Shown: positions 13,021 to 38,190 of the stretch, piece after piece | How positions within the stretch are numbered: the stretch's first letter is position 1 | How the letters are laid out: each line of letters starts with the position of its first letter | NCBI GenBank assembly: GCA_045805005.1 | Contig: JBJMMB010000340.1 | Coordinates: 1-51,723 of the forward strand | Length of the DNA stretch: 51,723 bases | Direction of reading: 5' to 3' | Source of the DNA: Chloroflexia bacterium | GTDB taxonomy: Bacteria; Chloroflexota; Chloroflexia; QHBQ01; JADMIH01 | Position numbers and translations under genes: made by a program | The notes under the pieces: model-generated | The model's input: only the letters and a program-made list of their open reading frames with translations | The model's database searches: none | What the model was told of the DNA's origin: nothing

Positions 13021-15384
13021 CTAGGGTGCCGCCTTCATTCGCGGCCCGTTCGGCTGCTGCAGCGTGAGCGTTAGCATCTTGGAGATTTGCGCCCGGATCA
13101 CGGCTGCTCCCGGGTGGAAAGTGCCGTCCGCGTACCCGCTGACGACGCCGTTTGAGAAGACCGTTTCAACGTAACCGTATGCCCAGTGATCGATAGGCAC
13201 ATCCGTGAAATCGGGGGTGAGCGGACTGACGAGATCCCAGCCCTTCGCGAGCACGAGCATCTTGGCCACCTGTGCTCTACCCACTTCGTTGCCCGGCAGG
13301 AAAGTGCCGTCCGCGTAACCCGAGACCACGCCGCGCACGAACGCCGTTTCGATGTACTGGTAGAAGGGGTGGTCCACGGGCACATCGGTGAAGTCAGGGA
13401 AGACAGGGTTGTAGAGGTTCCACCCAAAACCGAGCGCCAGTAGTTTAGTCAGTTGCCCGCGGGTCGTGCTCGCCCCTGGTCTGAAAGTGCCATCGGCGTA
13501 CCCCGATATGACCCCATTGCAGTATAGGTAGGAGATATAACTGTATGCCCAGTAATCCTCGGGCAGATCAACGAATCGCATGCCACAGGGGCCGGGGGTC
13601 CACGTCGGCCCGGCGAACGGCGTCTCCGTCGCGGTCTCAATGGGATTGGTCGGGACGGGTGTGGCAGTGCCAATTGGTGTCCGGATTGGGGTGTTGGTCG
13701 GCGGGCGCACCGGAGTGTTGGTCGGGGTCCAGGTAGGTGTCCGGGTGGGAGACCTCGTCGCTGATGGGATGGGCGTGTTGGTAGGCAGGCCGCTCGACGT
13801 AGTGGGGATCCACATCACCGCGTCAAACCAGACGTTCCTTCCCGTTTCACCGGCATAGTCGCTGAGCGAGACTTGAGCCGGGGCCCCACCGTTGAAAAGG
13901 AATCTGCCAACGTGCGCCCAGCTACCGCTGCCGACATCGGTGATCGCCTTCTGGCTCACGTGCGAGATCTGGGTGCCATCGGCGGCGTAGACGGTATAGC
14001 GAGCATTAGTGGTTTCCGAATTGTGGTTGTCGACCCACGGTATGAAAGCATATACGTCGTAGTAGCCCGAGTTGGGCAGGTAGGTCGTCCAGGTCCCCGA
14101 GTTGACGCTGGACTGTGGATTGGTCACTGACGTGGTAACATAGCAATTGGATCCGTTGTATCCACCGTTATAGATGTTCCAGTAATGGGCAGGGTCGATG
14201 GGCGTGGGCACAGCCACGAAACCGCTGTCGGTGTTGTCAACCAGCGCCGCGCGGTCCGAGTCGCGGCGCACAAGCCCCATGTAGTAGGTCCAATTCCAGT
14301 ATGGACCAGGGTCAGTGTGCGTCTGGTTGGGGACCTGGTAGTGCCCAATTATGTGAGCCCGGTCGATAGGGACCGCGTACGTGTCGGCCAGGTGGCGAGC
14401 CAGGCCCGCGGACGCCTGGTACATTGCTTCGGTGTACCAGCCCTGCTGGTTTGCGAAGCCCTCATGCTCGATGCCGAAGGCACGCACGTTATAGTCCCAG
14501 TTGCCGGCATGATACGCGGTATTTGCCTCCCGCACCATCTGCGTGATATCGCCATCCGACGAGCGTATCACGTAATGCGCGCTGACCCCCGAGTTCGGAT
14601 TCTGGAACCAGCTAATCGACGACGAATAGGACCCTTCGGTGTCATGTATGATGATCACGTTCTGAGGTCCGTAGGGCCGCCCTACAGTATAGTTATTCGT
14701 GTGGGCGGGCACCCAGTGCGCCGGGCCATAGTCGTCGCTCGCTGGCGGCAGCGAGGTGCGGGCAGGCAGGTTCTTAAGGGCGGAAGACGCGAGGACCACT
14801 ACCTCCCCGCTTTGTAATGTTGCCTGCACACCCTCGCCAACGACCCGGAACACCTCCTGGGCGTACCCTTCGCGGACCGACTCGTCGGTCGCACCTGAAT
14901 ACTCCTGGACGGCACCGTACCAGTCTTCCAGCACCGTTGCGTCTGTCTTTCCATCTCTTAGCTTACCGGATATGTCGCTCAGGAGCGCCGCGCCCGCCTC
15001 AATGTTCGCCTCCGGAAACTTCCTTATGGCGTCTTCGCTCAAACCCGTGAGACTCGCCGAGCGAGCCAGGGTTCCACCCTCGCCATCGACAAGATGCATG
15101 ATCCCATAGCCGTGGTCGATAGACGGCGCGCCGTCGCGCTGCTCCCAGTGCGACTCGACGTGCCCGATCGCCATGAGCACCTGCACGGGCACGTTCCAGT
15201 GCCTGGCCGCGACCTCGAATGCCCGGGTTACGGGCGAGACGGCTGTGTCTGACGCCTGGGGTGCCGCTGATGTCTGGCCAACTCCTGCTACGGCCGCAAG
15301 GATGGCCGAACCTGCAACCAGCGTAGCCACTCGCACGAAATGCGCGGCCCGTTGCGCCGGCCCTACAGGGTTTGTCTTGTGCAT
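13021..15384 (-). CDS. cell-wall hydrolase: SLT-like region, N-acetylmuramoyl-L-alanine amidase (Amidase_2/PGRP) domain, Pro/Thr linker, three C-terminal SLH domains
   Basis: The ORF track gives 13021..15576 with a GTG start. I prefer ATG 15384 (MHKTNPVGPAQRAAHFVRVATLVAGSAILAAVAGVG, signal-like), which is preceded by GAGG. The upstream 64 codons have AT-rich third positions, unlike the rest of the gene. Amidase_2: IIIHDTEGSYSSSISWFQNPNSGVSAHYVI...AYHAGN...FGIEHEG. SLH x3: DYWAYSYISYLYCNGVISGYADGTFRPG, HPFYQYIETAFVRGVVSGYADGTFLPG, DHWAYGYVETVFSNGVVSGYADGTFHPG. Confidence 0.88.
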   Translation of the reverse strand: MHKTNPVGPAQRAAHFVRVATLVAGSAILAAVAGVGQTSAAPQASDTAVSPVTRAFEVAARHWNVPVQVLMAIGHVESHWEQRDGAPSIDHGYGIMHLVDGEGGTLARSASLTGLSEDAIRKFPEANIEAGAALLSDISGKLRDGKTDATVLEDWYGAVQEYSGATDESVREGYAQEVFRVVGEGVQATLQSGEVVVLASSALKNLPARTSLPPASDDYGPAHWVPAHTNNYTVGRPYGPQNVIIIHDTEGSYSSSISWFQNPNSGVSAHYVIRSSDGDITQMVREANTAYHAGNWDYNVRAFGIEHEGFANQQGWYTEAMYQASAGLARHLADTYAVPIDRAHIIGHYQVPNQTHTDPGPYWNWTYYMGLVRRDSDRAALVDNTDSGFVAVPTPIDPAHYWNIYNGGYNGSNCYVTTSVTNPQSSVNSGTWTTYLPNSGYYDVYAFIPWVDNHNSETTNARYTVYAADGTQISHVSQKAITDVGSGSWAHVGRFLFNGGAPAQVSLSDYAGETGRNVWFDAVMWIPTTSSGLPTNTPIPSATRSPTRTPTWTPTNTPVRPPTNTPIRTPIGTATPVPTNPIETATETPFAGPTWTPGPCGMRFVDLPEDYWAYSYISYLYCNGVISGYADGTFRPGASTTRGQLTKLLALGFGWNLYNPVFPDFTDVPVDHPFYQYIETAFVRGVVSGYADGTFLPGNEVGRAQVAKMLVLAKGWDLVSPLTPDFTDVPIDHWAYGYVETVFSNGVVSGYADGTFHPGAAVIRAQISKMLTLTLQQPNGPRMKAAP

Positions 15385-15633
15385 TTGAACCTCACATGCT
15401 TCAAGAAAGACGATGTTCCGGTCTACATTACGACGAGCCAATGCTATTGTGGTTGCGCGAGTTACGTAAAGTCGTTTGCGGCGGTCCTCAAACCGCGGGA
15501 AGTCAAGAGCGCGCCGGTAGGCGTCACGAGCCTCTTCGATGGCCCGCATCGCACCGTGCAATTGTACGAAGCCCACCCAGTACGGTCAAGGCATCTGTGC
15601 AAGGTCAGGGTCTACTCGTTTTTGGGTAAACAA

Positions 15634-15768
15634 CCTGTAGGGGCAGGCCCCCGTTGCCTGCCCCGGTCGTAAACCACAAGTGAGATAAATATCTCCGATT
15701 TCCCGTTTTCCCCATTCCACGCGTGAGAATCGCCAAAAAGCGGAAAAACCGGAAATTGCCGAGATCCT
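15634..15768 (+). repeat. composite dispersed repeat, copy A: one GC-rich hairpin unit plus a core of about 90 nt, directly upstream of the ferredoxin promoter
   Basis: Perfect hairpin GGGGCAGGC-CCCCGTT-GCCTGCCCC at 15640-15664. The core AGATAAATATCTCCGATT...CCCCATTCCACGCGTGAGAATCGCCAAAAAGCGGAAAAACCGGAAA matches the reverse complement of 36955-37045, including the identical 15-mer CCACGCGTGAGAATC. Confidence 0.75.
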
Positions 15769-15769
15769 G

Positions 15770-15798
15770 TTGCCGACATACAAGCCCTCATGTATAAT
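15770..15798 (+). promoter_or_regulatory. sigma70-like promoter TTGCCG-17-TATAAT for the ferredoxin gene
   Basis: TTGCCG at 15770-15775, 17-nt spacer, TATAAT at 15793-15798. About 60 nt upstream of ATG 15859. Confidence 0.6.
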
Positions 15799-15858: not shown

Positions 15859-16116
15859 ATGACTTATGTGATCACCGAGCCATGCATCAACGTCAAGGAC
15901 GCTGCCTGTGTGGACGTTTGCCCTGTTGATTGCATCCACCCCCGCAAGGACGAGCCCGGCTTCGAACCTGCTCTTCAGCTTTACATCGACCCGGACGAGT
16001 GCATCGACTGCGGTGCCTGCGAGCCGGAATGCCCGGTGAACGCCATTTTCCCCGAAGACGACGTGCCCACGGAGTACGAGGAGTACACCGCCAAGAACCG
16101 CGACTTCTTCAAGTAA
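15859..16116 (+). CDS. fdxA: 7Fe-type ([3Fe-4S][4Fe-4S]) ferredoxin
   Basis: The ORF track gives 15790..16116. The real start is ATG 15859 ([28 protein letters not shown]...), preceded by GGAGGAG at 15843-15849. Cys pattern: CxxxxxxCxxxCP ... [12 protein letters not shown]. Confidence 0.9.
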
Positions 16117-36488: not shown

Positions 36489-36866
36489 TCACGCCTGCTC
36501 GGGCGCAGCGGCCAGGTTCTCCGCGCCCACGGCACGACGCGCCGCGGACACCTCGCCGAGCACCCACCGGGCATAATCGCCGTTCACCTGCGCGGGCTCG
36601 ATGCGCAAAACGCACGGTATGTCGTAGCTGTGCAATTCACGTATCGCCCCCTCAGCCGCCTGGACACGGGATGCCGCCGTCTTACACAGAAGGACGGTTT
36701 CTTGCTCGTCGACCAGGCGGCCGCCCCAGTAGTAGAGCGACCGGGTCTGGTGGAGGTTAGCGCAGGCGATAAGCTGCCGCTCCAAGAGAGCGCTAGCGAT
36801 CTTCGCGGCCTCTTCTTCGCTGCCGCATGGGCAATATATCAATACAACGTCACCACTTGCGTCCAT
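36489..36866 (-). CDS. cutA: divalent-cation tolerance protein CutA
   Basis: ORF track. VVLIYCPCGSEEEAAKIASALLERQLIACANL...YYWGG...ETVLLCKT...HSYDIPCV is typical CutA1. The stop lies 10 nt before the tatA start. Confidence 0.85.
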   Translation of the reverse strand: MDASGDVVLIYCPCGSEEEAAKIASALLERQLIACANLHQTRSLYYWGGRLVDEQETVLLCKTAASRVQAAEGAIRELHSYDIPCVLRIEPAQVNGDYARWVLGEVSAARRAVGAENLAAAPEQA

Positions 36867-36951: not shown

Positions 36952-37273
36952 GAGATTACAGCGGTTTCCGGTTTTTCCGGTTTTCACCATTTTTGGGGAT
37001 TCTCACGCGTGGAGCGGAGAAAATGGGGAATCGTAGATCATTATCTAATCTTGAGTCAAGACCTGTAAGAAGGGAGAGTTGGGGGCAGCCCAAACCCCCT
37101 GCAGGGAGACCCCTGCACCCCTTGATGGGGAAGGAGGTACTTGGGGGACACCCCCAAACGCCCGGCAGGGAGGGCCCCGCACCCCTCTTGGCCGTTGGGG
37201 AAGGGGTGGTGTTGGGCTCCAATCCCCCAAGTACCTGGCAGGGAGGCAAGTACACCGCTTTTCTGGGGAGCGG
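36952..37273 (-). repeat. composite dispersed repeat, copy B (inverted relative to copy A): core plus three tandem degenerate GC-rich hairpin units of 60-70 nt
   Basis: The core at 36955-37045 is the reverse complement of copy A (15680-15765). Units lie at about 37078-37136, 37137-37206 and 37207-37273. Each contains TTGGGGG...CCCCCAA (for example 37141-57, 7-bp stem) and a CCTGCAGGGAG-like box. Confidence 0.75.
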
Positions 37274-37290: not shown

Positions 37291-38190
37291 CTAGACGGGG
37301 GCGCTTTTGACGTTGTGCTCGGAGGGCGCGGCCTCTGAGGTAGACGGTGCGGGAATGGGGGCAGGAGTTGGGGCCGGCGCTTGCGACTTTCTGCGTGGTG
37401 GGAGGAGCAGCGCCGTGAACATGATGCCCAGGTAGCCGCAGTAGGCAAGCAACTCAAGCAGGGAGGGTTCGGAAGTATAGCCAACGAGGGCCTGGAGAAT
37501 GGTGCCTGCAGTGCTGGCGGTGGGGATCCATTCGCCGGTGTTCCAGACGGGGTCGATCAGCGCGGGCAGCCAGCCAATCTCCTGGAACTCGTGAATTCCG
37601 TAACGCAATATGGAAGCACCGAAAAAGACCAGCATGAAGCCCGCAATCTTGAAGAAGAGCCGCAGATTAAGCCTTGCGCCCGCTATGTAGACGGCATAGG
37701 CGGCGGCTATAGACAATAGCAGGCCCACGATGCCGCCGAAGAGCGTGGCGGCGCCGGAGGTCTGGAAGGCGGAGGCGGAGAGGAAGAGGGCCGTTTCTAC
37801 GCCCTCGCGGGCCACGGTAAGGAAGGCTACCCCAAAGAGACCCCAGGCGGCGCCGCCCACGAAGCTAGCTTTCATGCTCTGCTCCAGGGCTCCCTTGATG
37901 TAGGGGGCGTGCCGCGACATCCAGAAGATCATATAGGTGAGGATGCCGACCGCAAGCAGGGAAGTCGCGCCCTCGTAGATTGCCTTGGCCGGGTCCTCGA
38001 AGGTGTTGCCAAGGAGGGCCAGGACGACGGTGAAAGCCACGGCCAGGGAAGCCGCCGAGAGGGCTCCGGCCCACACGGCATACCGGTGCTCCAGGCGGCC
38101 CACCTTTTTCAGGTAGCCAAGCATTATGGCTATGATCAGTGCAGCTTCCAGGCCTTCGCGAAACGTCAACACCGCAGCACCGAAATTCAT
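37291..38190 (-). CDS. FTR1/EfeU-family high-affinity iron permease
   Basis: ORF track. Two REXXE motifs (REGLEAALI, REGVETALF), 7 TM-like segments, Pro/Ala-rich tail. Confidence 0.85.
   Translation of the reverse strand: MNFGAAVLTFREGLEAALIIAIMLGYLKKVGRLEHRYAVWAGALSAASLAVAFTVVLALLGNTFEDPAKAIYEGATSLLAVGILTYMIFWMSRHAPYIKGALEQSMKASFVGGAAWGLFGVAFLTVAREGVETALFLSASAFQTSGAATLFGGIVGLLLSIAAAYAVYIAGARLNLRLFFKIAGFMLVFFGASILRYGIHEFQEIGWLPALIDPVWNTGEWIPTASTAGTILQALVGYTSEPSLLELLAYCGYLGIMFTALLLPPRRKSQAPAPTPAPIPAPSTSEAAPSEHNVKSAPV

Follow-up and report, generated by a model that had tools for sequence, protein, structure and literature searches.

The window, by which we mean the whole stretch of 51,723 nt that was analysed, is contig C340 of a Chloroflexia bacterium assembly, a MAG of 5.05 Mb in 549 contigs that is 78% complete and has a G+C content of 62.5%. 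Judging from a protein encoded in the window, its nearest relatives are uncultured soil "Chloroflexia bacterium" MAGs, at ~60% amino-acid identity. At the first of the two loci considered here, an SLH/amidase ORF and a ferredoxin gene (fdxA) lie on opposite strands, while at the second an FTR1 iron permease gene is followed on the same strand by cutA and then tatA (Table 1). Pfam searches confirmed neighbouring genes for the SLH/amidase protein, the ferredoxin, a carboxyltransferase, FTR1, CutA1 and TatA.

Table 1. Genes, promoter-like sites and repeats at the two loci of the window, with example loci on other contigs.
Feature	Position	Strand	Basis or remark
SLH/amidase ORF, 851 aa	13021-15576	-	Pfam
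Promoter-like site TTGACC-17-TACAAT, toward SLH/amidase gene	15561-15589	-	Consensus scan
GTAG-tagged REP copy (REP-A), CTGTAGGGGCAGGCCCCCGTTGCCTGCCC plus flanks	15603-15681	+	Iterated nhmmer; outside the core family
Copy A of core repeat, subfamily 1	15681-15768	+	Alignment, BLAST, covariance model (86 bits)
Copy A, degenerate palindrome TGAGAT-AAAT-ATCTCC	15681-15696	+	
Copy A, left arm	15699-15716	+	
Copy A, loop	15717-15734	+	Holds the 15-mer (15717-15731)
Copy A, right arm	15735-15755	+	GCGGAAAAA/CCGGAAA units
Copy A, tail TTGCCGAGATCC		+	
fdxA promoter TTGCCG-17-TATAAT	15770-15798	+	Sigma-70-like consensus scan; independent of the repeat
Ferredoxin (4Fe-4S) gene, downstream of copy A	15859-16116	+	Pfam Fer4 families
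cutA gene, then tatA	36489-36866 (cutA)	-	Pfam CutA1, TatA_B_E
cutA promoter TTGCCA-17-TATAAT	36913-36885	-	Sigma-70-like consensus scan; ~45 nt downstream of copy B end
Copy B of core repeat, subfamily 1	36960-37048	-	Alignment, BLAST, covariance model (82 bits)
Copy B, right arm	~36995-36965	-	Three units, TGGTGAAAA, CCGGAAAAA and CCGGAAA
Copy B, 15-mer	37012-36998	-	
Copy B, left arm	37030-37013	-	
Copy B, palindrome TTAGAT-AATG-ATCTAC	37048-37033	-	
Three tandem ~60-nt GC-rich two-hairpin units, consensus GGGTGCAGGGGTCTCCCTGCCGGGGGTTTGGGGGTGTCCCCCAACTCTCCCCTTCC	37071-37273	-	Same orientation as core
FTR1 iron permease gene, upstream of copy B repeats	37291-38190	-	Pfam FTR1
REP pairs, examples	C442:1134-1209/1350-1269; C544:29072-29144/29200-29147		
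GC-unit arrays, examples	C428:6590-7002; C65:14957-15291		
Subfamily 2, example loci	C391:3739, C336:1841, C163:5202, C12:3292, others		

The preliminary description of this DNA had pointed to a pair of similar stretches, one before the ferredoxin promoter and one before that of cutA, hereafter copies A and B, and both are there. Pairwise alignment of the two limited their similarity to ~90 nt, and genome-wide BLAST agreed, with 82% identity over 73 nt (E ~3e-14). The identical 15-mer said to be in common, CCACGCGTGAGAATC, was confirmed as exact, with two occurrences and no third site in the whole assembly. The 474-nt and 424-nt spacers had been explained by the presence of repeats, which holds as well, since the core and the neighbouring repeats supply most of the extra length (in the spacer before fdxA, repeats occupy ~165 nt, and in that before cutA ~290 nt).

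By scanning for a sigma-70-like consensus, we recovered both promoters that had been named, each with a 17-nt spacer. The gaps between copies and promoters needed slight revision, copy A ending 2-8 nt before its -35 (2-5 nt claimed) and copy B ~45 nt before (~40 nt claimed). The REP and the core at the copy A locus sit between the fdxA promoter and the promoter-like site that faces the SLH/amidase gene. This last site overlaps the GTG start of the longest SLH/amidase ORF, so that the true start codon is probably further in, near 15384. In 11 same-genus genomes, all of them without the core, we found a canonical -35/17/-10 promoter before fdxA at the same distance to the ATG. On sequence grounds, the predicted fdxA promoter is independent of the repeat. 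The spacing of the fdxA promoter, its ~55-60-nt 5' leader and the GAGGAGG ribosome-binding site was constant across the 11 species of the genus; further upstream, the DNA was completely different in each of them, and the fdxA-upstream spacers across the genus are too diverged for an empty-site comparison at nucleotide resolution. The copy B locus offers no usable ortholog, because FTR1 and cutA are not adjacent in most relatives.

Two further repeat families flank the copies. The range 15634-15768 had been taken as one unit, of which the core part stands while the 5' part proved to be a separate GTAG-tagged REP hairpin. Likewise, GC-rich hairpins do precede both copies as described, but they come from two unrelated families and do not form a common architecture, so that their presence before both copies is a coincidence of repeat-rich spacers. 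The REP has the structure CTGTAGGGGCAGGC-CCCCGTT-GCCTGCCC with an 8-bp GC stem. By iterated nhmmer, we counted 378 copies without overlaps; 136 of these belong to convergent pairs spaced within 150 nt (REPIN-like), so the hairpin before copy A belongs to a family with the GTAG tag, the hundreds of copies and the inverted pairs of REPs. Many other genomes of the genus carry the hairpin in abundance as well (89-97% identity), and GTAG-tagged REPs have previously been reported in Chloroflexi (PMC3733652). The REP-A element carries, in addition, a conserved tail of ~20 nt after CTGTAGGGGCAGGCCCCCGTTGCCTGCCC.

The GC-rich unit next to copy B is more abundant still in the genome, with 467 units in 245 arrays of 1-8 units each, always on the same strand within an array, and one further species of the genus (G025) gave 16 matches to it. 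These units adjoin 11 of the 34 cores of subfamily 1 (defined below), upstream, downstream or on both sides, and their orientation relative to the core was the same in all neighbouring units (22:0). Core and GC units together thus show the variable module number and the fixed relative orientation of BIME/BOX-like elements. Since 11 of 34 cores adjoin GC units whereas only two of 34 lie near a REP, the arrangement of copy B is a recurrent mosaic and that of copy A a chance neighbourhood. That the spacer of the core might recur in the window's other inverted heptamer arrays was considered too, and rejected, since theirs are unrelated.

Genome-wide BLAST with either copy matched ~30 additional loci, and iterated nhmmer extended the core family to 66 non-overlapping loci on 63 contigs, distributed over two subfamilies. 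The two copies of the window are thus not the only ones. Subfamily 1, to which both belong, comprises 34 copies with the consensus TTAGATAAATATCTAACA TTTCCCATTTTCCCCATTT CACGCGTGAGAATCCCCC AAAATGGTGAAAATGGGGAA(AATGGGAA) ATTGCCCC. It begins with a 16-bp palindrome, TTAGAY-N4-ATCTAA, and continues with an imperfect inverted repeat whose arms are built of tandem 8-9-nt units (TTTCCCCAT / ATGGGGAAA), two in the left arm and two or three, inverted, in the right one. The arms enclose a 20-nt spacer with a conserved CACGCGTGAGAATC loop, within which lies a second palindrome, CACGCGTG, and a short tail, ATTGCCCC, closes the element.

The 32 copies of subfamily 2 have the hairpin arms in common with subfamily 1 and CCACGCACG as their spacer. 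They are without both subfamily-1 palindromes; the motif GCTACAAATAGTATC replaces the first and recurs ~110 nt downstream, and the element is framed by two direct GCT(A/G)CAAATAGTATC copies ~110 nt apart. It is further set in extra modules, with CATCGTC and CCCCGAC heptamer arrays on its flanks, and one group carries up to 340 nt of conserved upstream segment that includes the palindrome GCAGATTTATCTGC. Several copies of subfamily 2 lie at contig ends, where they probably caused the assembly to break. With a common sequence at many unlinked loci (29 subfamily-1 copies above 60 bits with a covariance model), non-coding, mostly intergenic and independent of the function of the neighbouring genes, the core family fits the definitions of an interspersed, dispersed non-coding repeat and of a mosaic element, and it had not been described before.

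In the subfamily-1 alignment, the best-conserved columns are those of the two DNA palindromes, AGA...TCT in the first and ACGCGT in the loop, at least 90% conserved or invariant. The AAT of the loop is also invariant or nearly so, and the 29 copies average 74% column identity. Such near-invariant blocks suggest constraint by protein recognition, which could be that of a transposase or equally of a host DNA-binding protein. By imposing the long hairpin and the palindrome on the alignment, we found 81.8% of cells paired against 79.6% in shuffles, and 23 cells with double-sided changes where 12.5 were expected; none of the 500 shuffles reached either value, though the effect is small. The search for compensatory changes, which had been proposed as a check, therefore gave arm-to-arm covariation above every shuffle, albeit weak, while RNAalifold predicted no consensus long hairpin.

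Folding of single copies gave MFE z-scores below -2 in 62% of subfamily 1, the most stable reaching -40 kcal/mol. Copy A has a weak hairpin of its own (MFE -15 kcal/mol, z = +0.3), and copy B folds differently. The opposite strand folds more stably in both subfamilies (Wilcoxon p = 0.006 for subfamily 1 and < 1e-6 for subfamily 2). In several copies, the right-arm units are closer to each other than to the left arm, as with ATGCTCAAAATGCTG in a copy on contig C316, which together with the varying number of units (2-3) points to slippage. We infer that the hairpin may be an ancestral or generative feature in decay, with occasional correction by template switching at the DNA level. Over the whole window, Rfam models gave no match to the repeats at gathering thresholds; relaxing the search to E up to 10 for the two loci yielded chance-level matches only (miRNA models, for example). 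Two regions of the window were also scanned for terminator-like sites, and none was found.

We then looked at how far the family extends beyond this genome. The loop 17-mer, allowing up to 2 mismatches, has 27 matches here against 0-3 in each of 60 relatives, the latter being the level of a reversed-pattern control, and by nhmmer these stray matches showed no homology to the core. A covariance model built from 29 copies gave 32 matches in this genome, 29 of them above 60 bits, and no match in the 60 relatives, 25 of which are of the same genus. An exact 21-mer scan over one genome per species (185,579 species) gave no match either. BLAST of both loci against the genus recovered the flanking genes, the REP and the GC unit, and never the core. 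Among JGI metagenome contigs we found two matches, and the stretches read of each agree letter for letter with a locus of this genome, in one case the copy B locus; both are thus the organism's own loci, and no strain-level empty site was found among them. In the data searched, the core family as recognised by these patterns and models is confined to one species.

To describe placement, an ORF heuristic based on GC3 was run over the assembly, giving 4016 genes at 86% coding, and all statistics on orientation and region type rest on these calls. Intergenic DNA holds 27 of the 34 copies of subfamily 1; of the rest, 4 are at contig edges and 3 inside ORF calls. These three (C173:3715, C29:2650 and C398:513) are located near the 5' ends of heuristic ORFs, whose N-termini were probably called too far upstream. 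The 27 classifiable copies occupy 16 tandem, 8 divergent and 3 convergent regions, where the available intergenic length predicts 13.8, 8.1 and 5.1, respectively, and this agreement suggests random insertion into intergenic DNA. Within tandem regions, subfamily 1 is oriented with the genes in 8 cases and against them in 8, and the corresponding split for subfamily 2 is 4 to 8. The fixed polarity toward a downstream promoter, on which the preliminary description had built, is therefore not seen genome-wide, all the less so given the three convergent copies. That impression arose because two copies alone were in view; for two copies to face promoters alike has a chance of ~1 in 2 or lower, depending on context, and is not significant.

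Proximity to promoters is not general either. Of the 34 subfamily-1 copies, only 4 are followed within 200 nt by a sigma-70-like promoter of like orientation, and the window copies are two of them. Across the family, the next start codon in the direction of the core is ~24 to 607 nt away from it, and the palindrome stands ~81 nt from the -35 in copy A and ~127 nt in copy B. In a scan of the 34 subfamily-1 copies, promoter-like sites did not recur at any one position within the element, whichever strand was read, and the notion of an outward -35 or an internal promoter as part of the element was rejected. Among the flanking proteins, beyond the abundant SLH type, no recurrent gene family or transposase was found, nor did the flanking genes have a common function. 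Enrichment of SLH genes (3 of 119 flanking genes, 92 of 4016 genome-wide) and of "YFER"-repeat proteins (5 of 119 and 63 of 4016) was considered and judged not convincing.

We also searched for traces of a mobilising system. In alignments with 400-600 nt of flanks, conservation stops at TTAGAT on the left and at ATTGCCCC on the right, and these ends are not inverted copies of each other, so that terminal inverted repeats, as MITEs would have, were not found. By eye, no flanking direct repeat indicative of a target-site duplication was seen, with element boundaries that are fuzzy. The search for a RAYT in the 78%-complete assembly was negative: the sole Y1_Tnp match is of the IS200 type, with 101 bits for NF033573 and 23.6 bits for the RAYT model, whose cut-off is 80. 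This only HUH/Y1 transposase is a 149-aa IS200/IS605-type TnpA (C147:1980-2430; L136:1483-1932, minus strand), located directly downstream of a 398-aa ORF (L136:2000-3196, minus strand) with a ParB-like N-terminal region by eye. We noticed no tnpB gene or flanking repeats around it, and its contig holds no REP copy.

Among known elements, the closest parallels are E. coli BIMEs and the BOX elements of Streptococcus pneumoniae, which like the core are short, non-coding and intergenic, with modules in variable number and fixed orientation and with hairpin parts. The mosaic of a core with 0-3 GC-rich units in invariant relative orientation resembles them also in its copy range of dozens to hundreds per genome. 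The core differs from them in having no sequence similarity, in its arms of tandem 8-9-nt units, in its palindrome-bearing loop and in the extra 16-bp palindrome. BIMEs have associated binding proteins, IHF or gyrase. REP families are usually common to related species, which is the case of the genus-wide REP found here and not of the core. REP/REPIN elements, GTAG-tagged ones among them, are mobilised by RAYT transposases (Di Nocera et al. 2013, PMC3733652; Bertels and Rainey 2011, PMC3116915). The REP directly before copy A fits this class with its copy number and convergent pairs, whereas the core has no GTAG or CGTC tag and no doublets, and its AT-rich, imperfect stem is long (~19 bp) with a 20-nt loop.

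With MITEs (the Correia elements of Neisseria, ERIC/IRU and the cyanobacterial Nezha) the core has in common that it is a ~100-nt non-autonomous element, intergenic, in either orientation and lineage-specific. MITEs sometimes adjoin promoters and may alter expression incidentally. The core is unlike them in lacking terminal inverted repeats and in that its mosaic structure makes the boundaries fuzzy; no target-site duplication or parent insertion sequence was identified. Arms of short tandem units in variable copy number also recall the STRR of heterocystous cyanobacteria, which are heptanucleotide tandem repeats. The other inverted heptamer arrays of the window have the same layout of array, spacer and inverted array as the core, but they are single-locus with unrelated units and spacers, while the core is dispersed, has a conserved spacer and uses units of 8-9 nt instead of 7. 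Heptanucleotide tandem repeats are further exemplified by the TAACTGA repeats of Beggiatoaceae (PMC4679880).

Could the repeat nevertheless act on the genes next to it? One or both palindromes might bind a dimeric host protein, be it a transcription factor or one associated with the nucleoid, so that the spread of the element would have wired many intergenic regions to it. That the palindromes are the best-conserved blocks of subfamily 1, that 22 of the 24 genomic TAGAY-N4-RTCTA sites are within the family and that 24 of the 27 classifiable copies lie in intergenic regions with at least one gene start would agree with such a mobile operator. A regulon would, however, be expected to have a fixed distance to the promoter, coherent targets and conservation at orthologous sites, whereas here the palindrome and the core end stand at variable distances from promoters and starts, orientation shows no bias, the flanking genes are functionally incoherent and the site is missing from the relatives altogether, including upstream of fdxA in the 11 same-genus genomes. 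Moreover, subfamily 2 is devoid of both palindromes, and the distribution over region types is that of random insertion. A shared regulator-binding region, as had been proposed, is for these reasons not borne out: the absence of a common function among flanking genes and the near absence of the palindrome outside the element make a regulon unlikely, and we regard the mobile operator as an improbable reading of these sequence patterns.

Slightly harder to sustain, and in our view quite improbable, is a family of small structured or cis-acting RNAs, in the form of an sRNA gene that ends at the next promoter or of a UTR hairpin affecting mRNA stability, with the conserved, self-complementary CACGCGUG in its loop. 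Hairpin potential above shuffled controls in about two thirds of the copies and the small covariation would suit it, and so would the more stable opposite strand if that strand were the RNA, as G-U pairs would give this difference; but G-richness alone leads one to expect it as well. An sRNA gene or a cis-regulatory RNA would come with its own promoter and terminator, a conserved structure and conservation across species. Instead, there is no fixed-position promoter-like site in or before the element, no terminator-like site in the regions scanned, no RNAalifold consensus and no Rfam match, the orientation is unbiased with respect to genes, and none of the 60 relatives has the element. Copy A, whose hairpin is no better than shuffled, is flanked by two divergent promoter-like sites and hence is probably not transcribed, which argues against a general RNA role. 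The small RNA gene put forward in the preliminary description thus found no positive support.

The third proposal, a promoter-proximal module, would make the element an UP-like curved A-tract region, or the carrier of an outward -35 in its TTGCCC tail, that boosts the downstream promoter. Phased A-tracts do occur in the right arm, and in copy A no more than ~25 nt separates their end from the -35. The tail ATTGCCCC is similar to the -35 boxes of the TTGCCR type that occur in the window, and in three copies a promoter-like site begins 89-135 nt after the start of the element. Yet any promoter-like site within 200 nt downstream is the exception in subfamily 1, tandem copies point either way, some copies lie between convergent genes, the arm of copy B is ~45 nt too far upstream for an UP element, and the fdxA promoter keeps its position in relatives without the element. 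We therefore hold this reading to be very improbable. What stands of a "mobile promoter-proximal module" is that the repeat is multi-copy with the signature of a mobile or amplified element; its association with promoters does not stand. Taking the first two possibilities together, we likewise doubt that the family would consist of protein-bound operators spread recently to dozens of intergenic regions, those of fdxA and cutA-tatA included, or else of species-specific hairpin RNAs with a kissing loop.

Together, these data make it fairly probable that copies A and B are members of a lineage-specific, non-coding, mosaic dispersed repeat of the BIME/BOX/MITE kind, and most likely an ordinary selfish or neutral repeat rather than a promoter module. 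Transposition in trans would have spread the family within the species, or else recombination or template switching, with insertion wherever intergenic DNA tolerates it. Single copies would now be decaying, their hairpins partly lost and their unit numbers altered by slippage. The weak arm-to-arm covariation may be explained by correction of quasipalindromes through template switching in DNA as well as by selection on RNA. The position just upstream of the fdxA and cutA promoters would be incidental, and if they were affected at all, for example by A-tract curvature, this would be a by-product of insertion rather than what the element is for.

For annotation, these loci call for caution: unrelated short repeats, here a GTAG-tagged REP, a GC-rich tandem unit, the core and heptamer arrays, pile up in permissive spacers and can mimic a common regulatory architecture when one window alone is read. 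If the palindromes bound a host protein, the family would show how a repeat can disperse regulatory sites, although nothing here points in that direction. Since its arms resemble the inverted short-unit arrays of the same genome, the core family offers a case for studying the origin of mosaic repeats, and it could also serve as a strain-typing marker.
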